Of a stretch of DNA of 35,330 nucleotides, positions 16,623 to 33,434 are shown piece after piece; position 1 is the stretch's first letter; every line of letters starts with the position of its first letter. Position numbers and translations under genes: made by a program. The notes beneath the pieces are model-generated. The model was given only the letters and a program-made list of their open reading frames with translations. It did not search any database and was not told the DNA's origin. The DNA lies in the NCBI GenBank assembly GCA_963608365.1, contig CAVDFM010000003.1:1-35330 (forward strand). The letters are read 5' to 3'. Origin of the DNA: a bacterium (GTDB taxonomy: Bacteria; Bacillota; Clostridia; Christensenellales; CAG-138).

Positions 16623-16874
16623 ATGTGCAGTAATGATCTTTGGGGCTTGGGCGTTGGCCTTAGCGCCCGCATAGAAAACCATGATGATTCGCCCGAAAAC
16701 GCGGCAATGCTGAGGCGGCTTATGGATATAGGCTTTACCGAAGGGGCGGAGATTGAATGCGTGCTTGCGGCCCCGGGCGGCGGAATAAAGGCATACCTTG
16801 TGCGCGGCAGCGTCATAGCCCTGCGCGAAGGGGATGCGCGGCTTATAAAAACAGGTGAAGCGTATGCAAAATGA
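16623..16874 (+). CDS. feoA: Ferrous iron transport protein A (FeoA domain).
   Basis: 83 aa from the ATG at 16623 (GGAGG at 16613-16617). The sequence ..LMDIGFTEGAEIECV....G.IKAYLVRGSVIALREGDARLI.. matches the FeoA SH3-like fold pattern, and the gene overlaps the feoB start. Confidence 0.85.
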   Translation: MCSNDLWGLGVGLSARIENHDDSPENAAMLRRLMDIGFTEGAEIECVLAAPGGGIKAYLVRGSVIALREGDARLIKTGEAYAK

Positions 16875-17907
16875 GCCTGTTATAGCCCTTTGCGGCAACC
16901 CCAACGTTGGCAAAAGCACGCTGTTCAACGCCCTTACCGGCATGAAGCAGCACACGGGCAACTGGAGCGGCAAAACGGTGGGCCTGGCGCGGGGCGTATG
17001 CACGCGCGGCGGGAAGCGATACGGAATAGTTGACCTGCCGGGCACATATTCGCTCCTTGCCCATTCAAAGGAGGAGGAGATAGCAAGCGGCTTCATAGCA
17101 TCGGGCCATGCGGATGCGGCGGTGGTGGTGTGCGACGCAACGTGCCTTGTGCGCTCGCTTACGCTTGCCATGCAGGTTTCGCGCCTGCACGCGCGCACGG
17201 TATTATGCATAAACCTTATGGACGAGGCCGAACGCCGCGGCATAAGCATAGACACAGCAAAGCTTGAAGCATTAAGCGGCCTGCCCTGCGCCGCGGTGTC
17301 CGCGCGGAGCGAAAGGGGCATAGATGAGCTGTTTACTAAAATCAACGCCGCGCTTGAAGCGGAGCCTTCTCCCCCGCCCGCATTTGCGTGCGATTGCCCT
17401 AACGCGGCCTTCTGCCTTTCGGAAAGCATATGCGGCAAGTGCGTTGCCGTATCGAAAACCGCGGACGAGCGCCGCATGAAGATAGACAGAATACTTACCG
17501 GCAGATACACGGGCATACCGATAATGCTTATTCTGCTTGCGCTGGTGTTCTACATAACGCTTGAAGGGGCAAACTATCCTTCCGCGTGGCTGAGCAAGCT
17601 GCTGCTTTCGCTTGAGCCGCCGCTAAACTCCGCATTGCTCTCGCTCGGCCTGCCGCAGGGCGCGGCGCTCGCGCTCAGCGCGGGGGCGTACAGGGTGCTT
17701 GCGTGGGTGGTGAGCGTTATGCTGCCGCCGATGGCGATCTTCTTCCCGCTGTTCACCTTCCTTGAAGAGCTTGGCTATCTTCCCCGCGCGGCATTCAATA
17801 TGGACCATTACTTCAGCCGCTCAGGCTCCTGCGGCAAGCAGGCCCTGACCATGTGCATGGGCGTAAACCGAATGCGGGCTTGCGTATTTTATCCAGCTAA
17901 TGTATGA
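16864..17907 (+). pseudogene. feoB: feoB 5' fragment (G domain plus first membrane segments), disrupted by island insertion.
   Basis: G-domain motifs GNPNVGKST, DLPG and NLMD. The FeoB-like sequence stops at ...GKQALTMCMG (17862) and is followed by 14 unrelated codons and a stop. Confidence 0.9.
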
Positions 17908-18953
17908 TGTACAAGAAAGTGTGCAAGATAATGCGCAAGATAAACAATGGAGGAAGCACTTTGGACAGATATGACCCGCCGTATACCATCACGGACAGCA
18001 TGCTTGAGCGCGCGGCATCAATATCCGAAAAGCTCGGCAGAATAAGCACGGCGCACGGGCTTGAAAATAAACCGCATCTGCGCAGAAACAACCGAATAAA
18101 ATCCATCCATTCCTCGTTGCGCATAGAGGCCAATTCACTATCCCTGGGGCAGGTGCGCGACGTTATAGGCGGGCGGATGGTAATAGGCGCGCAAAGGGAA
18201 ATACAGGAAGTTAAAAACGCATACGAAGCATATGAAAGGCTTCCTCAAATAGACCCATACAGCATTGACGATTTGAAAACGCTGCACGGCATAATGACAA
18301 AATGCGTTGTGGAGGAATCCGGCTTTTTCCGCACGGGGGAAGAAGGCGTGTTCAACGGCGACAAATGCGTTTTCGTGGCCCCGCCGGCAAAGCTTGTGAA
18401 CGAGCTTATGGAAAACCTGTTTGAATGGATGAACCGCGCAAAGGAAAGCGTGCATCCGCTGATACTGTCTGCTGTGTTTCATTATGAATTTGTGTTTATC
18501 CATCCGTTTGCGGACGGCAACGGCAGGATGGCGCGGCTTTGGCACACGGCGCTGCTTTCAAAATGGAAGCCCATATTTGAATACATTCCGCTTGAGAGCC
18601 AAACGGAGAAGTTTCAGGACGAATATTATAAGGCCATTGCCGCCTGCCACGGCGAAGGCCGCGCGGATACATTTATAGAGTTCATGCTGAGGATGATAGA
18701 CAACGTGCTGGATGAAATTGCGGAGCAGATAGCGCGCACGGACGATCAGCTTCCGCTTTGCGTGAAAAAGCTTATGGACTGCATGGAGTACGATACTTCG
18801 TATACTGCGGCGGAGCTGATGCAAAGGCTTGAGCTCAAATCAAGGAACGCCCTGCGCAATAACTATATTTCCCCCGCCATGCGGCTCGGGTTGGTGGCAA
18901 TGACAATTCCCGATAAGCCCAACAGCCGCAATCAGCGCTACATAAAAAGATAA
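17904..18953 (+). CDS. Fic/DOC family protein (canonical Fic motif, C-terminal wHTH-like region).
   Basis: HPFADGNGRMARLWH matches HxFx(D/E)GNGRxxR. An upstream SSLRIEAN segment resembles the (S/T)xxxE(G/N) inhibitory helix. The start codon is uncertain (17904 or 17931). Confidence 0.85.
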   Translation: MMYKKVCKIMRKINNGGSTLDRYDPPYTITDSMLERAASISEKLGRISTAHGLENKPHLRRNNRIKSIHSSLRIEANSLSLGQVRDVIGGRMVIGAQREIQEVKNAYEAYERLPQIDPYSIDDLKTLHGIMTKCVVEESGFFRTGEEGVFNGDKCVFVAPPAKLVNELMENLFEWMNRAKESVHPLILSAVFHYEFVFIHPFADGNGRMARLWHTALLSKWKPIFEYIPLESQTEKFQDEYYKAIAACHGEGRADTFIEFMLRMIDNVLDEIAEQIARTDDQLPLCVKKLMDCMEYDTSYTAAELMQRLELKSRNALRNNYISPAMRLGLVAMTIPDKPNSRNQRYIKR

Positions 18954-18960
18954 AGTAAAA

Positions 18961-18982
18961 AGGCACGGTATTAGCCGTGCCT
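18961..18982. terminator. Hairpin terminator between the convergent Fic and P-loop genes.
   Basis: aggcacgg-tattag-ccgtgcct, preceded by AAAA (a T-tract on the minus strand). Confidence 0.6.
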
Positions 18983-19001
18983 TGGTTATCTGAATGAAAT
19001 T

Positions 19002-19976
19002 TTAGCCGTTATAGTGGCTGAACATATTGTCCGTTGCGGTGCGGATGGCGCGGGTGACGTCGGTAACCTTGTCCGCGGCCCAGGTTTCGGGCTCGCCGCG
19101 CAGGAAGGAGGTCTTGTCCACCCTGTTGTCGAATACGCCTATGGGCACATGGTATGTTTTGCCGTGCGCGTTTACGGTAACGGTGTTTTCAACATCGCTG
19201 GTTTTGATAAGGTACTCCATATCGTCGCAGCCGTAGTCGCCCAGCATTACCGCCATGGGCACGCCGTGGTGCAGATTGGAGCCGGGGTCGTTGGGATCCG
19301 CCCTGTCCGCATTCTTGCGGCGAGATTCTTCCGGCGTTACCCAAATATAGAGTATAACGGCCTGTTCAAGTATTTCCGGGCAGAACATGGGCAAAGAATA
19401 CTGATAGCCGAACGTCCCCGTGAGCGGCATGGCTGCGCCGTCCGGTCCGCCGCGCGCGCATTCGATTATTATGGTCTTGTTTTCAAAGCTTTCGGGGTAA
19501 CCGGCATGCTTTTCATTAAGCATTGCGCGGGCCTCTTTTTCAAGCCTTTCGGCAATTGTGTTCCGCGTGTTTTCATCCAGCACGCCAAGCCTGTTGGGTA
19601 TGCCCGCGCCCGCGGCAGCCCTGTCGAACCGGTCGAAAAGCAGCTTCGCCGCGGAGTCAGGCTTCGAAATATTGCGGTTCATCAGGTCGTGATAATCCTC
19701 GTTGAGCAAATTGCACAGCGTGCCCCAGTCGCGCCCGTCCAGGAAAGGCGCTTCGCCGGGATAGAACACGCGCGGCTTATTAAGCTTTGCAAGCTCCTCG
19801 TCAATGCGGCGCATCATATGCACATAGGGAAAATCGTCAAGCTGAAGGTTTTCGCCTATATGGAACTCGTTTTGCAGCCTTTCCGGCTCCACATGCGCCA
19901 TAAAATTCCTCACTTCGGACTTGCCGGACGCCGGCAGCGCCTGAAGCAGAACCACCTTAAATACGTTGTTTTTCAT
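19002..19976 (-). CDS. Uncharacterised P-loop (kinase-like) protein.
   Basis: 324 aa. Walker-A-like VVLLQALPASGKSE at the N-terminus, then ..IIIECARGGPDG.. and an Arg-rich ..TPEESRRKNADR.. segment reminiscent of a kinase lid. I do not recognise the family. It starts 20 nt downstream of the 5'-nucleotidase gene. Confidence 0.55.
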   Translation of the reverse strand: MKNNVFKVVLLQALPASGKSEVRNFMAHVEPERLQNEFHIGENLQLDDFPYVHMMRRIDEELAKLNKPRVFYPGEAPFLDGRDWGTLCNLLNEDYHDLMNRNISKPDSAAKLLFDRFDRAAAGAGIPNRLGVLDENTRNTIAERLEKEARAMLNEKHAGYPESFENKTIIIECARGGPDGAAMPLTGTFGYQYSLPMFCPEILEQAVILYIWVTPEESRRKNADRADPNDPGSNLHHGVPMAVMLGDYGCDDMEYLIKTSDVENTVTVNAHGKTYHVPIGVFDNRVDKTSFLRGEPETWAADKVTDVTRAIRTATDNMFSHYNG

Positions 19977-19996
19977 GCTGTCTCCTTCTTTCTGTA

Positions 19997-21505
19997 TCAG
20001 TAAATAAGTTTAAGCCATTTATGCTTGTCCACGGTTATATTGCGGTGCTTATCAACGTATGCGATTATCAGCTCCGCAATTTCCGTAGGCAGCTCGCGCA
20101 TGGTTTCGCATTGGCGGTAAACGTCGTAGCCGCCCGCGCCCGACGCGCGGTAGTTATTCATGCAAAGAGTAAGGCGCTTATCGCCGCTTAATTCCTCGCC
20201 TTTGTATTTTATCGAAACCACCCTGTCCCCCGCGCTTCGGCGTATATCGAACACGGCTTCTATGCCCGAAAAATAATCGTAATTGAAATGCTGCTCTATC
20301 GGCACAAGGAAGCTTTCGCTCACCATCAGCTTGCCGTCGGCGCCCATCGTGAAGTATTCCGCGCTCCGCTCCAATGCGCGTTTAAGCTGCTCCCGCGTGA
20401 CGCAAAGGGTTTTGAGCGTGTTGGGGTAAATATATGTGGATACGATGTCGCGTATGGTAACGTCCCTGTTCAGCCCCTTCACCGTGTTGCCAAGGCTTGT
20501 TGCGGAAATGTCCGCGCCTGTCGCCTCAAGCTGCACCTGATTGAAAAAGTTGGCTATCAGGCTGCCGTTTGCGGCCATGTCTATATGGTCGCGCGGCAGA
20601 AGCTCCGCGTCAAGATGCCCAACGGGCGTATCGAACCACACGGCGGCCTGCTCCTCATACGGGGCGAGCAGCTCATGCGCGGCTGCGCTTTCATTATCCC
20701 CCGCGGGGCAAATGCGGGACACGGCGCTTACGCCGTTTTCAACCGATATGTCAAGCTCAATGTACTCCTTCGCCTTGTCGGCAGGCTGGCAGGTGAACGT
20801 GCCGCACACGCGCTTATTCTCCGCCGCCATGTGCTGATGCCCCGCAAGCAGAATATCGTAATCAAGCTCAGAGCATATCCTGTACCCTTGGTTTTCATCC
20901 GTTGCGGAAAGGGGTGCGCCGGTTGCCAAATCGCGCTCGTACCCGCCGTGGTATATGCATATGTTTATGTCAGTATGCTGCGCCTTTAGCTCGCTTAAAG
21001 CCTCTTTGGCGGCGGTGAAGGCGTCCGTAACGGTTATGCCCTGCATGTTCTCGGGCTTTTCAAATATGTTCACATAATGCGTTGTAACGCCCGCAAGCCC
21101 CACGCGAAGGCCGTTTTGCAGCGTTACTACGGCGGTGCTTTCAACGCCCATTATGCCGCGCACGTTCGCGCAAAGGCATTTTGCGTTGAGCGCGGCAAGG
21201 TATTCCTCTATCGCCGCTTTGCCGTAATTGAAATCGTGATTGCCAAGGGTCACAAAGTCGTACCCGCCTATGTTCATAAGCGAAGCTATTGCTTTGCCGC
21301 CGTGCTCCGTTTGGCTGTAAAGATAATATGTGAACGGGCTGCCCTGCAGGATGTCCCCGCCGTCTATTATAAGCGTATCGCCGTCCTTTTTGAAATTGGC
21401 TATGCAGTTTGAAAGCCCCGCGGCTATGCGGCTTCCCGTTGCATAATCGGTTGGGGAAAACGCGCCGTGAACATCGCTTGTGTAGTATATCTTCAGCTTT
21501 TTCAT
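19997..21505 (-). CDS. Bifunctional metallophosphoesterase/5'-nucleotidase family protein (UshA/CpdB-like), apparently cytoplasmic.
   Basis: Motifs DVHG, GGDILQG, GNHDFN and AGHQH, plus a C-terminal 5'-nucleotidase-type domain. I prefer the ATG at 21505 (MKKLKIYYTSDVHG) over the track start at 21652. No signal peptide is visible. Confidence 0.85.
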   Translation of the reverse strand: MKKLKIYYTSDVHGAFSPTDYATGSRIAAGLSNCIANFKKDGDTLIIDGGDILQGSPFTYYLYSQTEHGGKAIASLMNIGGYDFVTLGNHDFNYGKAAIEEYLAALNAKCLCANVRGIMGVESTAVVTLQNGLRVGLAGVTTHYVNIFEKPENMQGITVTDAFTAAKEALSELKAQHTDINICIYHGGYERDLATGAPLSATDENQGYRICSELDYDILLAGHQHMAAENKRVCGTFTCQPADKAKEYIELDISVENGVSAVSRICPAGDNESAAAHELLAPYEEQAAVWFDTPVGHLDAELLPRDHIDMAANGSLIANFFNQVQLEATGADISATSLGNTVKGLNRDVTIRDIVSTYIYPNTLKTLCVTREQLKRALERSAEYFTMGADGKLMVSESFLVPIEQHFNYDYFSGIEAVFDIRRSAGDRVVSIKYKGEELSGDKRLTLCMNNYRASGAGGYDVYRQCETMRELPTEIAELIIAYVDKHRNITVDKHKWLKLIY

Positions 21506-21573
21506 GGTTATGCTATGCATAATGCCCCGTGCTTTTGGTGCGGCGGGGCATTGCGGAATCAAAATTTTGTGTT

Positions 21574-22437
21574 TTATGCGCCGTGCGCCAGCTTGCGGCG
21601 TATCCTTGTGGATACAAGCTCTATTATAAGCACCAGCACCATCAGCCCCCATACGAACGCGCCTACCATTGCCCAGCGGCGGCTGTTAAGGCACTGCACA
21701 AGCGATGCGCCTATGCCGCCCGCGCCCACTATACCAAGGGTGGTGGCGTCCTTCAGGTTTATGTCGAAGCGGTAAATGGTTGTTGAAATAAAGCTTGCGG
21801 TAAGCTGGGGTATAACGCCGTAGCGGATCTTTTGGAAAGGCGTGCAGCCCATCGCATCCAGGCTTTCGAGTATATGCGTATCAAGATCCTCTATTGCCGT
21901 TATGTACATTTTTGATATCATGCCGATAGAGCATATGGACTGCGTTATAACGCCGCAGGCTGCGCCCGGGCCGGTAACGCGTATCCACATCAGCGCCCAA
22001 ACAATGCTGGGTATGGTGCGTATCATAAGTATAAGCACCCTTACCGCGTAAGCCACGGGCTTAGGCATAATGTTGAACGAAGCGAGGAACGCAAACGGTA
22101 TCGCAAGCACCGCGCCTATAAGCGTGCCGAGCACCGCAATGGCGATGGTCTGCAGCAGAAGATACGGAACGTCCGTATCCGATGTGCCGAAAAGCAGGGC
22201 TTTATCCGGGCTGAATACGCCGTGCAGCACGCCCTTTGCAACCTCCGTACCCGTTACGGTAAGGCCGGTGAACTTTATGTCCGATGCGGACCAGCCCACC
22301 ATTACGACTATCAGCAGCACTATTGCAAGATACAGCACCCACTTGCGCGGGCGGTTGGCGTACATTTCCGCAACGGTCAGCTTTTTGTCCAGCGTCTGTT
22401 CAATTTCGTCTATTATGTTCTTCTTTTTCTTTTCCAT
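21574..22437 (-). CDS. phnE: PhnE-type ABC transporter permease (second copy).
   Basis: Polytopic, with the EAA-like loop ..IEDLDTHILESLDAMGCTPFQKIRYGVIPQ.. I prefer the start at 22437 (GGAGG upstream), 14 nt after the preceding permease gene. Confidence 0.85.
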   Translation of the reverse strand: MEKKKKNIIDEIEQTLDKKLTVAEMYANRPRKWVLYLAIVLLIVVMVGWSASDIKFTGLTVTGTEVAKGVLHGVFSPDKALLFGTSDTDVPYLLLQTIAIAVLGTLIGAVLAIPFAFLASFNIMPKPVAYAVRVLILMIRTIPSIVWALMWIRVTGPGAACGVITQSICSIGMISKMYITAIEDLDTHILESLDAMGCTPFQKIRYGVIPQLTASFISTTIYRFDINLKDATTLGIVGAGGIGASLVQCLNSRRWAMVGAFVWGLMVLVLIIELVSTRIRRKLAHGA

Positions 22438-22451
22438 GACGCCCCTCCTCA

Positions 22452-23306
22452 TCAGCTAAGCTTCTTGCGCAGATATTCGCTGAAGAAGTCTATCGCCACG
22501 ACCACGACAAACAGCGAAAGCAGCACCATGCCAAGGCTGTTGTAATCGCGCCAGCCTATGCGTTCGTTTATGGTTATGCCAAGGCCGCCTGCGCCAACGT
22601 AGCCAAGTATGGCCGAAGCGCGCACGTTCATTTCAAAGCAATAAAGGCTGTGGCTCAAATAAACGGGCAATATCTGCGGCACGCACGCGGACCAGAACGC
22701 CTGGAATTTGTTGGCGCCAAGCGCCTCCATGGCCTCAAACGGCCCCATGTCGATTGTCTCTATGCTTTCAAAAAGCATTTTGGCAACTATGCCGAACGTG
22801 AATATGGCAATAGCTACCGTGCCCGAGAATGTGCCAAGGGAGAATATAAGCGCGCACACAAGGGCTATTATAAGCGTGGGCAGCGTGCGGATAAGGGCCA
22901 GTATAAAGCGGCATATGCTCACAATAACAACGCTGTGGTTAATGTTGCTGGACGAAAGTATGGCGATGGGCAGCGCCAGCGCGCAGCCTATTACCGTGCC
23001 CAGTATGGACATCTTAATGGTGTCAAACAGCGGGGATATGACTTTCGGGAAAAAGCTCCAGTCCGGCTGGAATATCTTTTTAAGCAAATCCAGCATTTTG
23101 CTGAACTTGTTTATTACCGTGCCTATGTCAAAGCCCGTCATTTTAAGCGAAAGATATATCGCCGCCGCAAGCAGTATTATTATAAGCGGGGCGCGGCTCC
23201 TGCGGCGCAGCACGCTATGGCCGTTGGCAAGTGTTATGCGCTGCGGCTTAAATATTTTGTCGTATAGGGTTTCCTTTATTATTACGGGGCTGTTTTCGTT
23301 TTCCAT
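22452..23306 (-). CDS. phnE: PhnE-type ABC transporter permease (first copy).
   Basis: 284-aa polytopic protein, with ..IETIDMGPFEAMEALGANKFQAFWSACVPQILP.. Confidence 0.85.
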   Translation of the reverse strand: MENENSPVIIKETLYDKIFKPQRITLANGHSVLRRRSRAPLIIILLAAAIYLSLKMTGFDIGTVINKFSKMLDLLKKIFQPDWSFFPKVISPLFDTIKMSILGTVIGCALALPIAILSSSNINHSVVIVSICRFILALIRTLPTLIIALVCALIFSLGTFSGTVAIAIFTFGIVAKMLFESIETIDMGPFEAMEALGANKFQAFWSACVPQILPVYLSHSLYCFEMNVRASAILGYVGAGGLGITINERIGWRDYNSLGMVLLSLFVVVVAIDFFSEYLRKKLS

Positions 23307-23310
23307 ATCA

Positions 23311-24105
23311 TCAGCCCTCGGTTTTTATCTGGTGCAGCTCGCCCTCGCCTTCGCCCATTGTGGGGACCTTGGTGCCGTTGTACACCTCGTCTATCTGCTC
23401 CTGCGTTATGGTGCTTGCGGGCCCGTCGAAAACTATTTCGCCCGCGCGTATGCCTATTACCCTGTCGCAGTATTTGAGCGCCAGGTCAACATGGTGGATA
23501 TTGAGCAGTATGGATATTTTGTATTCCTTGTTTATGCGCACAAAGTCCTGCATGACCTGCTTTGCGGTTATCGGGTCAAGCGAGGCCACGGGTTCGTCCG
23601 CAAGAATTATCTTCGGGTTCTGGTTAAGCGTCCGCGCGAGCGCAACGCGCTGCTGCTGGCCGCCGCTCAATTGGTCGCAGCGGGTATAGGCCTTATCCAA
23701 AATGCCTACCTTGTCCAGACTTTCAAGCGCGCGCATCTTCTGCTCCTTGGAGAATATGCCGAACAAAACCTTGAAGAAGGGCATATCGGGCACGTCCGCC
23801 GTGAGTACGTTCTTTATGGCGGTGCTGCGGGAGACCAGATTGAAGCTCTGGAATATCATGCCCACCTTGCGGCGGTATTTGCGCAATGCCTTGCCGCGGA
23901 GCGTGTTTACGTCCACGCCGTCCACCGTGAGCTGACCCTTTGTAACGTCGTGCATACGGTTGATGCAGCGCAGTATTGTGGACTTGCCCGCGCCGGAAAG
24001 GCCGATTATGGCCACGAACTCGCCCTGCTCTATTTTCAGGTTTATGTCCTTTAGCGCCGTGAAGCCGTTTGGATAAGTCTTATACACATTTTTGAATTCT
24101 ATCAT
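23311..24105 (-). CDS. phnC: PhnC-type ABC transporter ATP-binding protein.
   Basis: Walker A GLSGAGKST, signature LSGGQQQRVALAR, Walker B ILADEPVASLD. The length and the ..LNIHHVDLA.. segment are typical of PhnC. Confidence 0.9.
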   Translation of the reverse strand: MIEFKNVYKTYPNGFTALKDINLKIEQGEFVAIIGLSGAGKSTILRCINRMHDVTKGQLTVDGVDVNTLRGKALRKYRRKVGMIFQSFNLVSRSTAIKNVLTADVPDMPFFKVLFGIFSKEQKMRALESLDKVGILDKAYTRCDQLSGGQQQRVALARTLNQNPKIILADEPVASLDPITAKQVMQDFVRINKEYKISILLNIHHVDLALKYCDRVIGIRAGEIVFDGPASTITQEQIDEVYNGTKVPTMGEGEGELHQIKTEG

Positions 24106-24137
24106 GCTGCGAACTCTTTCTTATATTATTATGGGAA

Positions 24138-24165
24138 AAAGCGCCCTGTATAGGCAGGGCGCTTT
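24138..24165 (-). terminator. Intra-operon hairpin with a T-tract after the binding-protein gene (attenuator or mRNA stabiliser).
   Basis: On the reverse strand, aaagcgccctg-cctata-cagggcgcttt is followed by TTCCC (with the paired TTT this reads TTTTTCCC). It begins 14 nt after the phnD stop. Confidence 0.6.
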
Positions 24166-24178
24166 GCGGTTCGAATTA

Positions 24179-25324
24179 TTATTCGGAAACGGCCTTAAGA
24201 GCAGCGCGGGCTCCGTCATAATCGGAATCCACAGCCTTGGCATAACCGGTGTGGCTGTACACATCGAATATGGCCTTGCCCTCTTCGGTATTGATTATGT
24301 TGATGAAGCAATCCTGAAGAGCCGCTACTATTTCGGGGGTGTAATACTGGCTGGCCTTGGAGATGGCAACGGTGTCGTTGTAGATACCCTCGGTCACGCC
24401 GATAACGTTGAGCTCGTTCCAGATGGAATCGGAGCGGCCCATGCCCTGCTTACCGGTTTCGTCCTTCTGGTCTACGGGCAGCGTCCAGCTGGCTTCGTAG
24501 TCGTTACGGCCGTCGGCATAGCAAACGATGATGTCTACCTGCTCGGCAGCGGCGTAGGAGAAGGCGGTGCCGTAGCCGGAGTCAAGAGGAATGACGTTGG
24601 TAAGATCGGAGATCTTCTTGCCGTCATAGTTGGCCATCAGCCACATGGAAGGATAGATGTAACCGGCGGAAGAGGAGGTCTTCTGCACCGCCCAGCGGGC
24701 GCCGTCAAGATCTTCCCAGGTGAGGGCTTCGCCGTTGTTGACCTTCTCGGCCAGCATCTTGCCGTACTCGGTGGGAGCGGCATAGATCAGGGAACGATAG
24801 TAGGTTACCTGGGGGCCGTTCTTCTGGGTGGCGTTAGCTTCGCCGTTCCAGTCCGCGGGGTTGGTGCTGTCGTTGGACAGGCCGTTGCGGGTGGCGGTCA
24901 GTATAACGTCGGTATCATCGGAATAGAGGGCATAGGTGCCGCCGGGCAGCCAGCCGAGGTCGATGGAACCGGCAGACATGGCCTCACCGGTGGCGTCGTA
25001 GCTGGTGCCTACGGTGATGTCAACTTCGTCTATGTCGTAGCCAAGGTTGGCCATTTCGGCCTTGACCAGCTCGGGCAGGTTCGCGGTACCGGCGATTATA
25101 ACGTCGGCATCCTTGGAAGGAACGAACTCAAGGGTCAGCTTGTCGAAATGCTGATTGGCGGGTTCGGCGGTGGGCTCCGCAGCGGCGGGGTCAGCGCTGG
25201 GTTCGGTCTGGGCGGGTTCAGTGTTGGCAGGCTCGTCGGTATTGGCGGGCTCGGCGTTCTGAGTGCAGGCGCAGACGGAGATCATCATAACAAGTGCTAT
25301 CAGCAGTGCTACGATCTTCTTCAT
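24179..25324 (-). CDS. phnD: PhnD-family substrate-binding lipoprotein.
   Basis: MKKIVALLIALVMMISVCAC lipobox, a Pro/Glu/Ala/Thr-rich tether, then a PhnD-like periplasmic-binding fold. I prefer the ATG at 25324 (GGAGG 8 nt upstream). Confidence 0.8.
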   Translation of the reverse strand: MKKIVALLIALVMMISVCACTQNAEPANTDEPANTEPAQTEPSADPAAAEPTAEPANQHFDKLTLEFVPSKDADVIIAGTANLPELVKAEMANLGYDIDEVDITVGTSYDATGEAMSAGSIDLGWLPGGTYALYSDDTDVILTATRNGLSNDSTNPADWNGEANATQKNGPQVTYYRSLIYAAPTEYGKMLAEKVNNGEALTWEDLDGARWAVQKTSSSAGYIYPSMWLMANYDGKKISDLTNVIPLDSGYGTAFSYAAAEQVDIIVCYADGRNDYEASWTLPVDQKDETGKQGMGRSDSIWNELNVIGVTEGIYNDTVAISKASQYYTPEIVAALQDCFINIINTEEGKAIFDVYSHTGYAKAVDSDYDGARAALKAVSE

Positions 25325-25407
25325 TTTGTAGATTTCCTCCATACTTTTTTATTCACGGCTAAACGCCTGTGAATTTCAAATTTTTTTGGCCTTATTTGCC
25401 GCAACAA

Positions 25408-25436
25408 AGTATATCACACAAACATTGCATTGACAA
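25408..25436 (-). promoter_or_regulatory. Candidate promoter of the phnD-C-E-E / phosphoesterase / P-loop operon (TTGTCA-17-TATACT).
   Basis: On the reverse strand, TTGTCA (25436-25431), a 17-nt spacer, then TATACT (25413-25408), about 85 nt upstream of phnD. Confidence 0.45.
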
Positions 25437-25470
25437 TGCCGATAGATATATTGTTTTCAGATTAGACAAA

Positions 25471-26199
25471 TTAACCGAGCAGCATGTTCTTCACGCGGCC
25501 TATGGCAATATATCCGTGCAGCACGGCCCAAAGATCGCTGCCTTTTTCTGTGCATTCGGGGTCAAGCAGCTCAGCGTACGGCGAAAGCGCGCAGCCGTTC
25601 TCGGCTTCAGCCTTATTATAGAAATTTTCGAAGAAACAATGCGGCTCTATCTTAACGTTCCTCAGTATGCCCTTGTATTCGTTAAGCGTGCAGTCGGGGA
25701 AATTTACGTTCCATATTTCGCCCGCAAGCGGCCTTTGAATAAGCTCCCGCGCTATTTCGTAAAGGAACATGTCCGTAACCTCGCGGCAGCCCACATGCGT
25801 TTCGGAAAAGGCTATTGCGGGTACGCCGTTCAAAAGCGCCTCCATTGCCGCGCCCACGGTGCCGGAATAGGCAATGTCAAAGCCGGTATTAAAGCCCGAA
25901 TTTATGCCGGAGAACACAACGTCCGGCTTTACGGGCAGAAGCGACTTTATCGCCGTCTTTACGCAGTCCGCAGGCGTGCCGCCTATTGCGTAAGCGGCCT
26001 TCACGTCCGCAGGAAGCTCGCGCTTCTCAACGCTTATCTCCCCCGCTATGGTTATCTTCTGGGACATGCCGCTGCACTGCCCCGCGGGCGCGGCCACCCA
26101 AACGTCGCCCAGTCGCGCGGCAGCGCTTGCCAGGCGCAAAAGCCCCGGCGAATCTATGCCGTCGTCGTTGGCAACAAGTATGTTAAGGCGTTTGTTCAT
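25471..26199 (-). CDS. surE: 5'/3'-nucleotidase SurE.
   Basis: The N-terminal LNILVANDDGIDSPG signature, at 242 aa. Confidence 0.9.
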   Translation of the reverse strand: MNKRLNILVANDDGIDSPGLLRLASAAARLGDVWVAAPAGQCSGMSQKITIAGEISVEKRELPADVKAAYAIGGTPADCVKTAIKSLLPVKPDVVFSGINSGFNTGFDIAYSGTVGAAMEALLNGVPAIAFSETHVGCREVTDMFLYEIARELIQRPLAGEIWNVNFPDCTLNEYKGILRNVKIEPHCFFENFYNKAEAENGCALSPYAELLDPECTEKGSDLWAVLHGYIAIGRVKNMLLG

Positions 26200-26335
26200 A
26201 TTTATATACTCCTTTGCCGGCGCTCCTTCATCATGCGCCCAACTTTAATATGATATCATTTGATGGGGACGGAGGCAAGGGGAATGGAACAACGGAAGCT
26301 ATAGTTGCTGCGCATTGCAAAAAATGTCTAAAAAT

Positions 26336-26367
26336 AAAAGTTTTTGCTATTGAGTGCAAAAACTTTT
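26336..26367 (-). terminator. Intrinsic terminator of the DinD-like gene.
   Basis: aaaagtttttgc / gcaaaaactttt stem with an 8-nt loop and a T-rich tail on the minus strand, 13 nt beyond the stop at 26380. Confidence 0.65.
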
Positions 26368-26379
26368 ACTTAGCTGCTC

Positions 26380-27246
26380 TTACTCCTTATCCGCCGCTGC
26401 TCCTTCCAGCAGGTTCGTTACCACTTGGTTGAGCTGCGCGGCGTTCTTTGACGATATGACGGGCACTCCGGTCTGGCTTTCTATGGCCTTGCGCGCATCG
26501 CCCGCGACCTTGCCGCCGGCGCGCGCCACGCTTATGTTTTCGGAAAGATTCGCGGGCGCTTTCTGCTTGGATATTTCCGTTGTGGTGGCTTCCGCCAGCA
26601 TGTTCAGCACCAGCTCGAGCGTTGTCATGTTGTCGCGCAAATTTTCCTTTTTCAGTCCCTTTAGGTTTTTGTATTGGCGGGTAGACATGCCCGACCATGT
26701 GCGGGATATTTCATCGGTAAGTATGGCGTACTCCACGCCCCTCTGTACGCCGCGTGCGTCCCATTCGTCGGTCAATTCCTTGCGTACCTGTATAGCCTGC
26801 AGCCGCTGGTTTATCCATTCGCGCGTGTAGCCTTTCCTGAGATAGGTTTCAAGCGCGCGCTCGATTGTCAACTCAGGGTCGATGGTTTCCTCTATGCGCT
26901 CCCGCCCTATCTGCGCCAGCCAAAGCTTAAACGGCTCCGCCTTGGGCGAAGGTATTGATTGTATTATGCGCAAAAGCTGTTTAGTATCGGCTACGTCGGT
27001 ATTATAGCGTTTGCCGTCAGCAGAACGCATTTTCAGCTGACTACAATTTGTAGTCAACTGACTGCCTTCTTTTTTTAGACGTGTTTTAAGAACGCTCCAA
27101 TACTTTGCGGCATGGCGCGTATCTGGCTGGTCTGTCAGCACGGCTACCACATCCACAATAGAAAAGTACCATTCCTCCTTCTCCTCGTCCCATGCCGTGC
27201 GTATGCGTTGGTTTTCAAAAAGCTGTATATTGTCGTTCGGCTCCAT
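26380..27246 (-). CDS. DinD-like / Bro-N-domain protein (DNA-damage-inducible protein D or phage antirepressor type).
   Basis: 288 aa. The N-terminus ..LFENQRIRTAWDEEKEEWYFSIVDVVAVL.. is Bro-N-like. The C-terminal half (..KNLKGLKKENLRDNMTTLELVLNMLAEATTTEI..) recalls E. coli DinD (..KGLKKNQKILDHMGSTELAANLF..). Confidence 0.7.
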   Translation of the reverse strand: MEPNDNIQLFENQRIRTAWDEEKEEWYFSIVDVVAVLTDQPDTRHAAKYWSVLKTRLKKEGSQLTTNCSQLKMRSADGKRYNTDVADTKQLLRIIQSIPSPKAEPFKLWLAQIGRERIEETIDPELTIERALETYLRKGYTREWINQRLQAIQVRKELTDEWDARGVQRGVEYAILTDEISRTWSGMSTRQYKNLKGLKKENLRDNMTTLELVLNMLAEATTTEISKQKAPANLSENISVARAGGKVAGDARKAIESQTGVPVISSKNAAQLNQVVTNLLEGAAADKE

Positions 27247-27461
27247 TGTGCATATCCCCCCCTGTATGTGTAGCTGCTTTTATTTTACCGCAAAAGCCTG
27301 CTTTACCGCAACCGCCACCCCCTCTCCGCATAGAAATAACCAAAGGGGGTGAGGCCGCATGGCGGGGCATGAGGTTTATTCAGTTGCGGCGGATGGGGCG
27401 GAAAGGCCGCTTGGCGAGATTTTAGAGGAGCTGCTGGAGGAGGTGGTAAAGGCGGAGGGGT

Positions 27462-29054
27462 ATGATGGCAAAGGCGGAATACAGGGCGGCGCTGTACATG
27501 CGCCTTTCAAAGGATGACGACGGCGCGGCGGAAAGCGCGAGCATAACCACGCAGCGGCAAATGCTGCGCAGCTACGCGGCGGAGCATGGATACGCCGTGC
27601 AGGATGAGTATAGTGATGACGGTTATTCGGGCGTAAGCTTCGAACGGCCGGAGTTTAAGCGGATGATAGCGGACATTGAGGCGAAGAAGGTCAACCTTGT
27701 TATAGTCAAGGACCTGTCCCGCCTGGGGCGCGACTATATCACGGCGGGGCAGTATACGGAGATATATTTCCCAAGCAAGGGCGTGCGCTGCATAGCCGTA
27801 AACGACGGCTACGATTCGGATGGGCCGTATACGGACATTGCGCCTTTCAAAAATGTTATAAACGAAATGTACGCCCGCGACATATCGAAAAAGATACGCT
27901 CCGCATTCGCCGCCAAAATGCGGGAAGGGGCTTACGTTGCCGCGTTTGCGCCGTATGGCTATCAAAAGGATGCGGCGGATAAGAACCGCCTTACAGCCGA
28001 TGCATGCTCGGGCGGGGTGGTAAAGCGCATATTCGCAATGGCTGCGGGCGGGGCGAAGCCCGCCGACATTGCGCGGACGCTGAACGCGGAAGGTATCCCC
28101 TCCCCCGCCGCGTACCGCTGCATAACGCACGGCGGACTTTGTACGGGGCGGCAGGAGTGGACGGGTTCAACGGTGGGCAAAATGCTGCGCAATATGGTTT
28201 ACATTGGGCATACGGCGCAGGGGAAAACCGAAAAGGTATCGTTCAAAAGCCGCGTGAGTGTGAGCAAGGCGCGGGAAGAATGGATAATTGTAAAAAACAC
28301 GCATGAGGCACTTATTGACGAAGAAACGTTCGATATTGTGCAGCGGCGCGCCCGCGCGCGGACGTGCGAAAAGAAGGGCGGGTTCTGCAACATTTTTTCC
28401 GGCATTGCAAAATGCGCCGGCTGCGGGCGCAATATGTCCTCAACAGGGACGCGGAAGAAAGGCTCGCAGGCCAATCTGTGCTGCGGAGGATATAAGCTTT
28501 ACGGCGCACAGGAGTGCGGCAACCACTTCATTGATTACGATGCGCTGTATAAAATAGTGCTGGCGGAACTGAGAGAGCGGCTGAATATAGGCGAAGCCGA
28601 GCGGGCGAAAATTGCGGATAACGTTTACGGGCGGCTTTGTGCGCAAAGGCGGGACGATGACAAGGAAAGCGGCGGCATACAAAGGCGGCTCGGTGAGATA
28701 GAAAGCATAATAGGCAGGCTGTATGAGGACAACGCCGCGGGCAGGCTGAGCGACGAGCGCACGGGCAGGCTTGCCGCAAAATATGAAAAGGAGGCCGAAG
28801 CGCTTGAAGAGCGCATGGGTGCGATTCAGGCCGGGAAGGAAGCGGCAGTTTCACGCGAAAAAATAGGCAGGCTGCTTGAGAGGATAACGGATATAACAGA
28901 GCTTACGCCGGATATGCTGTTCAGGCTGATAGACCGTATTGAGATAGCCCAGGGGCATTATGAGCAAACGGCGCAGGGGCGGGTGAAGCGCCAAAGCGTG
29001 AAGATATTCTATCGGTTCAAAACGGACTGCGCGGAACGGGAATACACTTTTTGA
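27462..29054 (+). CDS. Large serine recombinase (resolvase catalytic domain, recombinase domain, zinc ribbon, coiled coil and a DUF4368-like C-terminus).
   Basis: YMRLSKDDD...SITTQRQML and VKDLSRLGRD (catalytic domain). A Cys cluster CAGCGRNM..CCGG..ECGNH. C-terminal ..LTPDMLFRLIDRIEI....VKIFYRF.. The stop lies 23-35 nt from the right junction. Confidence 0.92.
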   Translation: MMAKAEYRAALYMRLSKDDDGAAESASITTQRQMLRSYAAEHGYAVQDEYSDDGYSGVSFERPEFKRMIADIEAKKVNLVIVKDLSRLGRDYITAGQYTEIYFPSKGVRCIAVNDGYDSDGPYTDIAPFKNVINEMYARDISKKIRSAFAAKMREGAYVAAFAPYGYQKDAADKNRLTADACSGGVVKRIFAMAAGGAKPADIARTLNAEGIPSPAAYRCITHGGLCTGRQEWTGSTVGKMLRNMVYIGHTAQGKTEKVSFKSRVSVSKAREEWIIVKNTHEALIDEETFDIVQRRARARTCEKKGGFCNIFSGIAKCAGCGRNMSSTGTRKKGSQANLCCGGYKLYGAQECGNHFIDYDALYKIVLAELRERLNIGEAERAKIADNVYGRLCAQRRDDDKESGGIQRRLGEIESIIGRLYEDNAAGRLSDERTGRLAAKYEKEAEALEERMGAIQAGKEAAVSREKIGRLLERITDITELTPDMLFRLIDRIEIAQGHYEQTAQGRVKRQSVKIFYRFKTDCAEREYTF

Positions 29055-29917
29055 CCGCATTCGGAAAACTCCCACGCATGCTGATGGGCCTTGGATGCAA
29101 CGCGGCGGCGGTGGTGGGCTGCCGCATAATAGACAGCCCGCGCGAAAGGCTCATTGCCATACTGACAAACGCATTCGTGCCCTGTAACGGGCGCTTCCCC
29201 GCGCTTATCGCCGTTATAAGCATGTTTTTCACCTATTCCGCATTTGCTTCGGGCGCGCTTGCGGGCGCGGTCATGCTTACGGCGCTGCTTATTGTGAGCG
29301 TTGCGGCAACGCTTTTGTGCGGGAAAATTTTGAGCCGCACTCTGTTGAATGGGGAGCAAAGCTCCTTCACGCTGGAGCTGCCGCCCTTCCGTATGCCGCG
29401 CATAGGCAGGCTTATTGTGCGCAGTGTTGCGGACAGGACGCTTTTCGTGCTGGGCCGTGCGGCGGCGGTGGCTGCGCCGGCGGGGCTGCTGCTTTACGCA
29501 TTATCAAACATAAGCATAGGTGGGCAGTCCGTACTGGCGGCGGCGGTGGGCTTCCTTGACCCGTTCGCGCGGGTGTTCGGGCTGGATGGGGCGATACTTA
29601 TAGCGTTCATGCTGGGCTTTCCCGCAAACGAGATAGTCCTGCCCATAGCCATAATGGCATACACAGCGTCCGGCTCGCTTGAGGAGCTGCCCGCGCTTTG
29701 CGATATGCGCGCACTGCTTATTGCAAACGGGTGGAGCATAAAAACGGCGGTATGCTTCGTGCTGTTCAGCGTAATGCATTGGCCGTGCTCCACAACGCTT
29801 TTAACAATAAAAAAGGAGACGGAAAGCCTTAAATGGACAATTCTGGCTTTCCTTCTCCCAACGTTATTCGGCCTTGCGGCGTGCTTTATTGTGAACGCGG
29901 TATTTACTCTTTTATGA
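29051..29917 (+). pseudogene. feoB: feoB 3' fragment (membrane domain). FeoB-derived sequence begins at about 29090; the first 13 codons come from the island end.
   Basis: LGCNAAAVVGCRIIDSPRERLIAILTNAFVPCNGRFPALIAV... continues the conserved FeoB G(F/L)GC...R(E/D)R...PF(M/V)(S/P)C region exactly where the 5' fragment stops. Confidence 0.9.
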
Positions 29918-30782: not shown

Positions 30783-30882
30783 GCGTGCTCCTTTGTGCGT
30801 TTATATGCCGCTTTTGCTGCTTTTATTATAAAGGCAGGGAAGGTTAAATTGCAATATATATCGGGGCTGTACTTGTTTACGC

Positions 30883-30944
30883 CAACCCCTCAGTCAATCC
30901 GCCTTACGGCGTATTGCCAGCTCCCCGGCCGGGGAGCCGTTTGG
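30883..30944 (-). repeat. Solo inverted copy of repeat core A.
   Basis: caacccctcagtcaatccgccttacggcgtattgccagctccccggccggggagccgtttgg is the reverse complement of 2910-2971 and 14171-14232, apart from the tetraloop and one base in the A-tract. Confidence 0.9.
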
Positions 30945-30965
30945 ACAAAATATAGCGTATTTCTC

Positions 30966-30995
30966 TTGCACTTCGACACTATTCTACATTATAAT
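30966..30995 (+). promoter_or_regulatory. Sigma-A-type promoter of the small-peptide gene (TTGCAC-18-TATAAT).
   Basis: TTGCAC at 30966-30971 and TATAAT at 30990-30995. The predicted start near 31002-31004 coincides with the first paired segment of the transcript. Confidence 0.55.
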
Positions 30996-31076
30996 AAACG
31001 CAAGCGCCTGCCCCGACGTGAAAAGGGGACGGTTGGCCACAACCCAATCTTGTTTTCAAGAAGGGAGGTGGTTTCT

Positions 31077-31187
31077 ATGATGACATGGTCAGAATTCTTA
31101 GCATTTCTGATGTTCGTTATAGAGCTTTTCAAGATTTTCTTGAGAGTACTGCGCTTCGTAGTAAAGCTCATCAAAAAAGAAAAGTAA
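31077..31187 (+). CDS. 36-aa hydrophobic/cationic peptide, a candidate type I toxin (holin-like toxin style).
   Basis: MMTWSEFLAFLMFVIELFKIFLRVLRFVVKLIKKEK, with a strong RBS (aagggaggtggtttctATG), its own promoter and a structured transcript. Confidence 0.5.
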   Translation: MMTWSEFLAFLMFVIELFKIFLRVLRFVVKLIKKEK

Positions 31188-31344
31188 CCGTTCCGGCCTA
31201 AGGTAACGGTTACCCTTAATCAGTTAACTCTGGCCAACCGTCTCCGGCAGGCGCGGTTTTTATACTTATATTATACGCAAATCATAGTGAATATGCAAGT
31301 GAAAACTAAATAGTGCAGTAGTATAAGCTTTCCCTAACATGCCC

Positions 31345-32175
31345 TCACCGCGCAACCGCGCCCCTGTACAGCCTCACCAGCTCCTCTATGCTCAGCGCCT
31401 CGGCGCGGGCGGCTTGGGCTATGCCTGCGCGGGCAAGGGCCTCTGCCGCGGCGTCCGCCGTGGGCAGCAGGGGCTTTAGGTTATTGTATACGGTCTTTCG
31501 GCGCATGGCGAATATGCTTTCCGTAAAGCGGCAGAATGCCGCGGGGTCTATGTTCGCTGGCGCATCGGTGCGGCGCGTGAGCAGCACCACCTCCGAATCC
31601 ACGTCCGGCTGCGGATAATAGCTTGCCGGCGTGAGCGAAACAAGGCTTTCGCATTCGTAATAAAGCTGCGCCATTATGGCAAGCGGGCCGTAAAGCTTGT
31701 CCTTGGGCTTTGCGAAAAAGCGGCGCGCGGCCTCCTTTTGCACCATCAGCACCATACGCGGTATCCTTTTTGCGTTGCGAAGAAGCATAAGCACTATGGG
31801 CGTTGTTATATAATAGGGCAGATTGCCCGCCGCGGCAAATTCGCCTTCCATGCAGCTTATGTCAAATTTCAATATGTCGCTGTGTATAAGCGTTAGCTCC
31901 CCGCGCGCAATCTCCGCGGCAAACTCCGCATTGAGCGCGGCAAGCATGTTTTTGTCTATCTCAACCGCGGTAACGCGCGGCACGCGGCCCACAAGCGCGC
32001 CCGTCAGCGCGCCGAGACCCGGGCCTATTTCAAGTATGTCCGTTTTGCCGTCCCCCACGGCGGCGGAGGCTATTTTTTCTATCATTGCATCGTCGCAAAG
32101 AAAGTTCTGCCCCAGCGCCGCGTTTGCGCGTATGTTAAGCCGTTCAAACTTTTGTTTAATGTCCGCCGCGCTCAT
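31345..32175 (-). CDS. rsmA: 16S rRNA (adenine1518/1519-N6)-dimethyltransferase.
   Basis: ..ALGQNFL.., SAM motif ILEIGPGLGALT, ..GNLPYYITTPI.. I prefer the ATG at 32175, which overlaps the upstream stop (ATGA). Confidence 0.92.
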   Translation of the reverse strand: MSAADIKQKFERLNIRANAALGQNFLCDDAMIEKIASAAVGDGKTDILEIGPGLGALTGALVGRVPRVTAVEIDKNMLAALNAEFAAEIARGELTLIHSDILKFDISCMEGEFAAAGNLPYYITTPIVLMLLRNAKRIPRMVLMVQKEAARRFFAKPKDKLYGPLAIMAQLYYECESLVSLTPASYYPQPDVDSEVVLLTRRTDAPANIDPAAFCRFTESIFAMRRKTVYNNLKPLLPTADAAAEALARAGIAQAARAEALSIEELVRLYRGAVAR

Positions 32176-33400: not shown

Positions 33401-33434
33401 AGATATATACTTATTAAAATGCGGAGGGGTCGGC

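Follow-up and report, generated by a model that had tools for sequence, protein, structure and literature searches.

Why is the ferrous-iron transporter gene feoB broken in two in the window analysed here, a 35,330-nt stretch of a Christensenellales genome (contig CAVDFM010000003.1), and does the break serve the cell? The gene is interrupted after codon 330 and its remainder follows 11,227 bp further on, beyond intervening DNA whose right end is occupied by a gene for a large serine recombinase (LSR). An earlier note on this DNA had suggested a reversible switch of Fe(II) uptake. Our analysis points instead, with a probability that we put at roughly 0.8, to the segment 17854-29080 being a site-specific integrative island devoid of phage and conjugation genes, which was put into feoB by its own TndX/TnpX-like LSR, with feoB likely serving as a landing pad and not as a regulated gene.

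The split gene and the point of exchange

From the ATG at 16864 the feoB frame runs ...SGSCGKQALTMCMG to 17862 (...GKQALTMCMG), continues through 14 unrelated codons and ends with a TGA at 17905-17907. The 3' part is taken up by LGCNAAAVVGCRIIDSPRERL at 29090, in a frame that opens inside the right end of the island and reads ...LMGLGCNAAAVVGCRIIDSPRERL from 29081/29090 to 29917. The two junctions carry the cores CATGTGCATGGGC (17850-62) and CATGCTGATGGGC (29077-89) and are accompanied by a 10-bp inverted repeat (CCGAATGCGG at 17868-77, CCGCATTCGG at 29055-64); each junction motif is present in exactly two copies in the window, against 0.10-0.15 expected, and two matches were reached in 0 of 100 shuffles. 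All of these features lie where the earlier note had placed them. When the two parts are joined, the open reading frame (ORF) from the ATG at 16864 stays in frame and encodes 608 aa with the domains FeoB_N, Gate (in two stretches) and FeoB_C. A search with this joined protein returned 51 intact FeoB proteins, all of exactly 608 aa, with which it is collinear over the full length at 96-97% identity and 100% query coverage; the claim that precise excision would rebuild an intact FeoB of ~608 aa is thus borne out both by the joined frame and by the alignment.

Each half on its own retains the character of the intact protein. The 5' part (codons 1-330, 16864..17853, + strand, ending ...GKQALTM) comprises the G domain and the first half of the membrane domain (Pfam FeoB_N, E=1.4e-51) and is 97% identical to residues 1-330 of the intact 608-aa orthologues, with a ratio of nonsynonymous to synonymous substitution rates (dN/dS) of 0.07. 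The 3' part (29081..29917, + strand, 278 codons from LMGLGCN... to the stop) comprises the second half of the membrane domain (Pfam Gate and FeoB_C) and is 97% identical to residues 331-608, with a dN/dS of 0.10-0.15. The truncated FeoB acquires from the island a tail of 17 translated codons (CMGVNRMRACVFYPANV) and a stop (17854..17907, + strand), and it is exactly after 17853 that empty sites part from the window. Four such empty-site contigs (L001-L004) were found, in keeping with the expectation that they should exist, and they share the gene neighbourhood of the window, glgB-feoA-feoB-patatin; the 83-aa feoA, the upstream partner of the split gene (16623..16874, + strand; Pfam FeoA, E=2.4e-12), is the same gene that precedes intact feoB in these contigs. 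Two other accounts of the split were discarded: an assembly chimera, because the same junctions are found in six independent contigs, and a naturally two-gene FeoB, because intact orthologues and empty sites exist.

The empty sites also fix the point of exchange more narrowly than had been proposed. The earlier note allowed recombination anywhere in a 13-bp core and joined the halves with a Cys at the seam, a position at which 51 of 51 intact FeoB proteins, reading ...GKQALTMLMGLGCN across the join, have Leu. Since both the intact orthologues and the four empty-site contigs encode TMLMG (...CTGACCATG|CTGATGGGCCTTGG), the exchange point is confined to the first CATG, and the island is therefore best placed at 17854-29080, still 11,227 bp in length. 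Judged from these sequence comparisons, the crossover is to be assigned to the TG of that CATG (17852-53 and 29079-80), i.e., to the second and third bases of codon 330, the only dinucleotide in the core that fits the empty sites, the symmetry of the phage-type attachment site attP and the pattern seen across the recombinase clade described below. Excision at this TG would consequently restore ...TMLMGLGC, as in all empty alleles, and not ...TMCMG. The ATGGGC match further downstream is a likeness of the P' arm to the B' arm, reflecting similarity between attP and attB, and lies outside the crossover.

The attachment sites can be written out on this basis. Because the empty-site contigs read ...CCCTGACCATG|CTGATGGGCCTTGG (...ACCATG|CTGATGGGC), attB is made up of the left flank of the window to the first CATG and the right flank from CTGATGGGC on. 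By comparison with these sites, attL (17829..17877, + strand) consists of the B arm to 17851, the central TG at 17852-17853 and the P' arm TGCATGGGCGTAAACCGAATGCGG at 17854-17877, a layout that recurs clade-wide. Junction reading, empty sites and clade pattern together define attR (29055..29104, + strand), with the P arm CCGCATTCGGAAAACTCCCACGCA at 29055-29078, the central TG at 29079-29080 and the B' arm CTGATGGGCCTTGGATGCAACGCG at 29081-29104. Both sites are thus hybrids of attB and attP with imperfect inverted arms and an identical 2-bp crossover: the reconstructed attP, CCGCATTCGGAAAACTCCCACGCA-TG-TGCATGGGCGTAAACCGAATGCGG, has 24-nt arms that are complementary at 19 of 24 positions around the TG, in agreement with the proposed descent of attL and attR from an attP with inverted arms. 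The reconstructed junctions read ...GGCCCTGACCATGCTGATGGGCCTTGG... for attB and ...CCGCATTCGGAAAACTCCCACGCATGTGCATGGGCGTAAACCGAATGCGG... for attP. The island delimited by alignment to the empty sites (17854..29080) has a G+C content (GC) of 0.536, equal to that of its flanks, and the LSR gene ends 24 nt before the crossover, close to the right junction as had been noted. Over 29081-29125, which includes the B' arm, the window departs from the 51 intact alleles and four empty-site contigs in reading CTTGGATGC against CTTGGGTGC and GCGGTGGTG against GCGATAGTG (Val for Ile).

The sequence of events that we propose is as follows: (i) a circular form of the island would carry the ~50-bp attP given above; (ii) this attP would recombine with attB in the codons for GKQALTM|LMGLGCN, the exchange taking place at the TG of the Met-330 codon and the orientation of the insertion being set by the central dinucleotide; (iii) insertion would split the FeoB copy in its first Gate motif and thereby inactivate it; and (iv) a scarless loss of the island, with return of the wild-type 608-aa FeoB, would follow from recombination of attL with attR at the same TG. 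The minimal mobile unit would consist of the att arms, a small conserved ORF and the LSR gene, with cargo added to it. This is the standard mechanism of serine integrases, and the present evidence reveals no new one.

A recombinase clade that shares one feoB codon

The LSR (27462..29054, + strand) is a TndX/TnpX-like protein of 530 aa that matches Pfam Resolvase, Recombinase and Zn_ribbon_recom (PF00239, PF07508 and PF13408, all over their cut-offs) as well as DUF4368 (PF14287, E=1.1e-10). The resolvase domain with its nucleophilic serine, the Recombinase domain and the zinc ribbon place it in the LSR class; an alignment with 10 relatives shows the YMRLS catalytic-serine motif and more than 200 further columns to be invariant, and the zinc-ribbon motifs are intact. 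The DUF4368 C-terminal region and sequence kinship assign it to the TndX/TnpX type, the nearest solved structure being the catalytic domain of TnpX (2mhc, E=4.8e-31) and the nearest named gene tndX of Tn5397 (39% identity over 98% of the length). The low target specificity that is a trait of this type is not what its relatives display, as the following survey shows.

One genome per species was scanned with an alignment of the LSR and with tblastn of both FeoB halves, 80 of 572 genome matches being retrieved. At 56 loci a feoB junction, placed exactly at residue 330/331, is found no more than 220 nt from the 3' end of the LSR gene, and six further LSRs reside inside elements that split feoB at residue 330/331 in other arrangements, which brings the informative loci to 62. 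In all 62 the LSR is at least 43% identical to that of the window, and every relative at or above this level with a feoB match in the fetched flank uses the same codon. As for the other loci above 43%, seven end too near the LSR to tell and six have no feoB match: L008 and L036, with almost no downstream flank, L022/L178, present in the attP form discussed below, and L055 and L063, where flank is present. Relatives at or below 41%, including every viral match in IMG/VR, have no feoB nearby. The hosts include Christensenella, Oscillospiraceae, Blautia producta DSM 2950, B. hominis, several Lacrimispora, Sporobacter termitidis, Anaerovorax odorimutans, Ligaoa and Hungatella; their FeoB halves are 43-68% identical to those of the window, and the motif encoded by the target, GKQALTMCMGFGCN (the FeoB Gate motif), is still recognisable.

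Elements of the clade are inserted in either direction, and their junctions follow a simple rule. Read with the LSR from left to right, 34 of the 38 forward elements, which face the feoB 3' half, have P arm...CCA-TG-B', and 17 of the 18 reverse elements, which face the 5' half, have P arm...CCA-CA followed by the reverse complement of B, so that the TG/CA rule holds at 51 of 56 clade junctions; hosts with an ACC codon instead of ATG have CC, or GG in the reverse case. As far as junction sequences can tell, this polarity is the pattern expected for a serine integrase whose orientation is set only by an asymmetric central dinucleotide, and, independently of the empty sites, it places the crossover on the last two bases of codon 330. 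On a neighbour-joining tree of the LSRs, forward and reverse elements are interspersed, from which it follows that the dinucleotide has flipped repeatedly.

What the clade conserves is the 40-50 bp of target DNA and a core of small ORF and LSR; orientation, cargo and size vary freely. Complete elements range from 2.3 to 13.9 kb, and the smallest (L043:7644-9956, 2,313 bp) has only the small ORF and the LSR between its att arms, so that it resembles an insertion sequence built on a serine integrase. In 17 elements surveyed with a greedy ORF caller, which in the GC-rich window chose wrong-strand shadow ORFs, the cargo is heterogeneous and includes ABC transporters, redoxin/DsbD, VanW, regulators and metabolic enzymes. 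Since the target motif stays recognisable and LSRs with unrelated cargo use the site in either orientation, we regard feoB as a landing pad: most likely its attraction lies in offering a conserved target sequence within a gene that the cell can do without, and not in any regulation of iron uptake.

The small ORF of the window (52 aa, MAGHEVYSVAADGAERPLGEILEELLEE..., 27359..27517, + strand) lies directly upstream of the LSR gene and overlaps its start. An ORF of 52-53 aa is annotated at the same place in L005, L007, L176, L177 and L179; such ORFs, 45-60 aa long, directly precede the recombinase gene in clade and outgroup alike. The motif Y.V...G..L.ELL.ELL recurs upstream of the LSR in most of the loci L005-L131, which comprise both the feoB clade and a TndX-like outgroup (~40% identity). 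The small ORF matches no Pfam family, and weak similarities to TnpW (E=0.069) and DUF6870 (E=0.15) are hints only. Its conservation and position make it a candidate accessory factor, acting perhaps as a cofactor of DUF4368 recombinases or as their regulator.

The survey also brought to light further breaks in feoB. In six genomes (L050, L052, L053, L061, L064 and L070, which include several Lacrimispora, Hungatella and others) the gene is cut again ~41 codons past the first site. In L052 (3650-8522) the second insert measures 4 kb and carries a YfhO gene and, adjoining the resumed feoB, an unrelated serine recombinase (22% identical to that of the window); in L064 the second break is followed by a helicase, HTH_3, a relaxase fragment and a WYL protein. 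A third break is possible near residue 31, in the P-loop region of the G domain, where ~2.4 kb separate the pieces (L064:2952-3029 versus 5401-5898; L070:2933-3013 versus 5427-5849). It appears that feoB is a multi-site hotspot for different recombinase families. Finally, extra pairs of P'-like and P-like arms lie in the 84-163 nt between the LSR stop and the feoB junction in L016-L021, and a centre-deleted attP palindrome was seen in L027 (3400-3450), such sequences being placed between the LSR and either the junction or the cargo; these look like scars of tandem insertion and may represent a route of cargo capture.

Persistence, mobility and the question of a switch

The island of the window has close counterparts in other samples. 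LSRs 87-95% identical to that of the window occur on independent contigs (L005/6, L007-9, L176, L177 and L179; the samples include ERZ15610113 for L005, ERZ26858253 for L007, ERZ1690239 for L176 and ERR14021305 for L179), in each case followed by the feoB 3' half and patatin, or with feoA and the feoB 5' half before the island. The junctions and a core of cargo genes are shared and the accessory genes differ: Fic is missing from L007, where SurE also has a frameshift, and Bro-N has given way to an AAA_14/DUF4143 gene in L005 and L177. A complete island of 11,171 bp, 94% identical to that of the window, occupies the same site in L176. With a DNA identity of only ~94%, the lineages compared are to be regarded as sister species or subspecies rather than as strains. 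In L177 two AAA_14/DUF4143 ATPase genes occur in one locus, at 1368-2687 and 6348-7559, one in the island and the other in the host flank past patatin. Synteny is lost ~1.8 kb to the right of the island (window 30783-35330): in the window, patatin is followed by ksgA (31345-32247) and a G5/3D-domain protein, and in all related contigs (L001-L005), filled or empty, a xanthine-dehydrogenase-type cluster lies beyond patatin instead of ksgA.

In two of the filled loci, L176 and L179 (the latter standing for a cluster of 2,300 LSRs), the FeoB halves are 100% identical in amino acid sequence to intact alleles, which indicates that the filled and empty states coexist in one lineage. In addition, the identity of host flanks and that of LSR regions are correlated (r=0.92, 10 pairs), suggesting a long association of the element with its host lineages. 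Protein-guided codon alignments gave dN/dS values of 0.18-0.29 for the LSR, 0.01-0.2 for the cargo, 0.07-0.15 for the feoB halves and 0.04-0.18 for flanking genes, and for the halves the signature of purifying selection holds even between filled genomes at dS ~0.2 (three filled lineages). Throughout the clade every feoB 5' half is an open frame, and among the 3' halves that lie fully within a contig 34 of 40 are full length, 6 of 40 stop at a second insertion and none has decayed. Had the halves decayed neutrally over dS ~0.1 per lineage, each should, by a rough estimate, contain several nonsense changes. That there are none means one of three things: (i) the insertions are far younger than the lineages, (ii) the gene is periodically restored, or (iii) the split gene is somehow useful. 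Considered together, the sequence comparisons make the island appear to be a presence/absence polymorphism in its host species that is still mobile. None of the findings that the earlier note had named as fatal to its claim was encountered: the joined protein is collinear with FeoB, empty sites exist, and the LSR is intact and under purifying selection. What the sequences show directly are the junctions, the empty sites, the target specificity of the clade, the dinucleotide rule, intact genes and attP forms in relatives; activity of this particular copy, excision that dispenses with a separate directionality factor, the mode of movement from cell to cell and the function of the cargo we infer.

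Open halves under purifying selection in three filled lineages, dS ~0.2 apart, could also speak for a regulated switch, in which excision and re-integration under iron, stress or sporulation control would turn FeoB-mediated Fe(II) uptake on and off in the manner of skin/sigK, SPbeta/spsM or the comK prophage; frequent unregulated gain and loss, however, explains the selection on the halves equally well. The switch would profit from an excision that is scarless and regains the wild-type protein, and element and host seem to have diverged together without loss of the empty alleles, as expected of a maintained reversible insertion. Moreover, the conserved small ORF beside the recombinase could be a control or directionality factor. 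On the other hand, the clade inserts both ways and with unrelated cargo, down to the 2.3-kb element of small ORF and LSR, which shows the target DNA to be conserved and not a link to iron; feoB does not belong to the developmental genes and shows no sign of sporulation-type regulation; and the two or three separate feoB insertions of some hosts fit a hotspot better than a tuned switch. Scans for Fur, PerR and DtxR consensus sites, run with no positive control, gave no convincing operator near the recombinase or upstream of feoA, and since none was found upstream of feoA either, this result is uninformative. Overall, nothing that we found ties excision to iron or to any cellular programme, and the switch of the earlier note, which would amount to control of the 'active lysogeny' type, by a cargo island without phage genes, over a transporter gene in many gut Clostridia, strikes us as unlikely. 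Its extension to the whole clade, as an induced and reversible switch of Fe(II) uptake that is perhaps governed by the small ORF and that is reflected in the purifying selection on the halves, we likewise hold to be improbable.

Returning to the reading of the island as a site-specific mobile element, intact attP sites in two related loci bear on mobility. A generic attP pattern for the subclade of 62-69% identity gave one match, L178; this locus (= L022:474-2180) has a clade LSR (64% identical), then an intact attP, GCATTCGGTTATTAACCATCCA-TG-TGGGTGGTTGATTACTAGATGCGG, and no feoB. Beyond the attP lies a surface-protein gene with an SLH-like C-terminal motif, recognised by eye. In L069 (1151-15040) a 6,945-bp feoB element is present twice in tandem, the copies being 100% identical and linked through an intact attP, AGCATAGATTGCCGCTGTCA-TG-TGACAGAAGAAATCTATGCT.

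Several observations weigh against an island that still moves. (i) The L022 contig is non-circular and starts with a tRNA gene, and L178 is 100% identical to it over their overlap; the two records consequently represent one unintegrated attP and not a proven excised circle. (ii) The L069 tandem may reflect either two real adjacent insertions or an assembly in which circular and integrated forms were merged. (iii) No circular attP junction or reconstituted attB of the island's own subfamily was found in JGI metagenomes or IMG/VR, where the species may be absent. (iv) No intact feoB allele of the window's own lineage was found in the protein search, the best intact match being 97%, exact-protein look-ups of the window LSR and FeoB C fragment returned nothing on record, and the empty and filled states are documented together only in the sister lineage. 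(v) No relaxase, Mob, conjugation or type IV secretion domain was detected in the island with Pfam, NCBIfam or PHROGs, and NikA/MobC mobilisation proteins occur in only 2 of the 17 relatives surveyed; the island has no relaxase, oriT-associated or packaging gene that would account for movement between cells.

The missing excision product and the missing intact allele, along with a GC equal to that of the host and a divergence that follows that of the host, would suit a fixed remnant, i.e., an immobile island inherited as chromosomal cargo in a permanently dead feoB copy. A dead element would hardly be reconciled, however, with an LSR that is under purifying selection and retains all its catalytic and zinc-ribbon motifs, with att sites that both retain the TG and the arms, with feoB halves in which neither a stop nor a frameshift has arisen despite dS ~0.2 between filled lineages, or with the coexistence in the sister lineage of filled and empty alleles encoding an identical FeoB protein. 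We therefore consider such a remnant very unlikely.

Cargo and comparison with known systems

Proceeding from the left junction, the island first encodes a Fic-family protein (17961..18953, + strand; Pfam Fic, E=9.5e-21; Fic-like_C, E=5.8e-20). Its ORF opens at 17904, and translation probably begins with the TTG at 17961, which has a GGAGGA ribosome-binding site in front of it and is backed by a 330-aa homologue in L176. This start lies 54 nt past the stop of the truncated feoB on the same strand, and no + strand terminator was found in a scan of 17736-19100; given the shared strand, the close spacing and the absence of a terminator between them, Fic may be transcribed from the host feoAB promoter. 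The following genes are on the - strand. A conserved 324-aa protein (19002..19976) has an N-terminal GKS (Walker-A-like) motif, ...LPASGKSEV..., and a dN/dS of 0.08 versus L007, and matches nothing in Pfam, NCBIfam or PHROGs. It is followed by a metallophosphoesterase/5'-nucleotidase-family enzyme (19997..21520; Pfam Metallophos and 5_nucleotid_C), whose ORF extends to 21652 but whose homologues, including those of 507 aa in L007 and L176, begin at the Met at 21520; its NCBIfam matches to the 2',3'-cyclic-nucleotide phosphodiesterase/nucleotidase subfamilies are all under their cut-offs, and no obvious signal peptide was found. The core of an ABC importer (21574..24105) comprises, by NCBIfam, two PhnE-type permeases (21574-22452 and 22452-23306; 221.6 and 267.6 bits, cut-off 216.7) and a PhnC-type ATPase (23311-24105; 351.5 bits, cut-off 266.1), with dN/dS values of 0.01-0.08. 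Its substrate-binding protein is a distantly PhnD-like lipoprotein (24179..25342; Pfam Phosphonate-bd, E=2.3e-24; lipobox ...ISVCAC) that scores 70 bits with NCBIfam TIGR01098, under the cut-off of 112. A SurE 5'/3'-nucleotidase (25471..26199; Pfam SurE, E=3.5e-50; NCBIfam TIGR00087, 155 bits, cut-off 135) and, as a variable accessory gene, a Bro-N domain protein with a DinD-like C-terminal part (26380..27246; Pfam Bro-N, E=3.8e-11) complete the set. To judge by these family assignments, the PhnCDE-type importer, the two nucleotidase-type enzymes and the P-loop protein suggest the scavenging of phosphorus compounds. Promoter and terminator scans of both junctions and the LSR gave counts near shuffled expectation, the left junction showing no more than a slight promoter-like excess, and none of the sites accounts for the anatomy.

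Some of this gene content might be read as that of a degenerate prophage or phage satellite with feoB as its attachment site, given that the LSR, the Bro-N protein (phrog_15286, E=5e-129), Fic, the nucleotidase and SurE all match PHROG families and that serine integrases are common in phages. However, no capsid, portal, tail, terminase, lysis, replication or repressor gene was detected with Pfam, NCBIfam or PHROGs in any of six island variants, which upholds the earlier observation that capsid, tail and conjugation genes are lacking. Clade members of at least 43% identity were not found in IMG/VR, the INPHARED phages or the PLSDB plasmids (best matches at or below 41%), and the clade elements, at 2.3-13.9 kb, carry metabolic, redox and regulatory cargo. 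In the absence of phage genes, a phage origin was rejected as extremely improbable. As regards the definition of an integrative mobilizable element (IME), the protein matches reveal no relaxase, mobilisation protein or oriT of the island's own, an oriT being unrecognisable from sequence alone.

The recombinase clade is large and, for gut Clostridia, apparently undescribed. Many gut and anaerobic Clostridia have this one feoB codon occupied by it, and carriers are available in culture: Blautia producta DSM 2950 (NZ_CP039126.1, at ~1.52 Mb), Sporobacter termitidis DSM 10068, Lacrimispora xylanisolvens DSM 3808, L. amygdalina DSM 12857, Anaerovorax odorimutans and Ligaoa zhengdingensis NSJ-31. 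The capacity for Fe(II) uptake can vary between strains through a mobile element, and automated annotation would list two 'FeoB fragments' and overlook the island. The repeated flip of the central dinucleotide, with the flip in insertion orientation that goes with it, constitutes a natural experiment, and dozens of natural attP/attB pairs for a single conserved target can be drawn from the clade, which should be useful for recombinase engineering. No report of feoB as a dedicated recombinase target was found in the searchable full-text literature, and it is also absent from the text and supplements of Durrant et al. 2022 that were searched (PMC10083194). The earlier impression that the target is unusual accordingly holds for that literature but not in nature, where 62 loci of the clade use it.

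Among known systems, skin/sigK, SPbeta/spsM and the Listeria comK prophage resemble the island in that an LSR-bounded element interrupts a gene which precise excision reconstitutes. They differ in being (defective) prophages, whereas the island lacks phage structural, lysis and replication genes, and the island has no known regulation, a target gene that is not developmental and a clade that inserts either way. Excision of these elements is tied to a defined programme (mother cell, phagosome) and, where studied, needs a dedicated directionality factor (PMC5025042).

In domain architecture, DUF4368 included, the recombinase is like TndX of Tn5397 and TnpX of Tn4451/Tn4453, which likewise sit at one end of a small element and exchange at a 2-bp core between imperfect inverted arms, and Tn4451 is a non-conjugative element of similar size. 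The differences are that TnpX and TndX are relaxed in their choice of target and have GA as their core, whereas the clade of the island uses one feoB target with a TG core, that the island has neither a Mob gene nor a resistance gene, and that the identity amounts to only ~39%. Neither enzyme needs accessory proteins for integration or excision (PMC2475636; PMC5704250).

Elements of Bacillota that integrate site-specifically by means of a serine recombinase and disrupt a dispensable gene in doing so are also known, e.g., the streptococcal IMEs in rumA, with which the feoB elements share a single LSR, very short direct repeats at the junctions, the disruption of a conserved coding sequence and variable cargo (PMC5704250). 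Target gene and recombinase clade differ, and as most of the feoB elements, the island among them, have no recognisable relaxase or oriT protein, the term 'mobilizable' is not established for them. Finally, clusters of LSRs that share one intragenic target, such as a prolyl isomerase site or ComM/Mg-chelatase, have been described (Durrant et al. 2022, PMC10083194), and there, as in feoB, a single site within a conserved coding sequence is targeted by many diverged LSRs; the feoB clade differs in carrying DUF4368. LSRs with this domain are typically multi-targeting: the share that carries DUF4368 was put at 63% for the multi-targeting, TndX-like clade but at no more than 0.73% for LSRs that are site-specific (PMC10083194). 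A large DUF4368 clade that keeps strictly to one site is therefore noteworthy, as it reveals strict site specificity in recombinases that are usually promiscuous.

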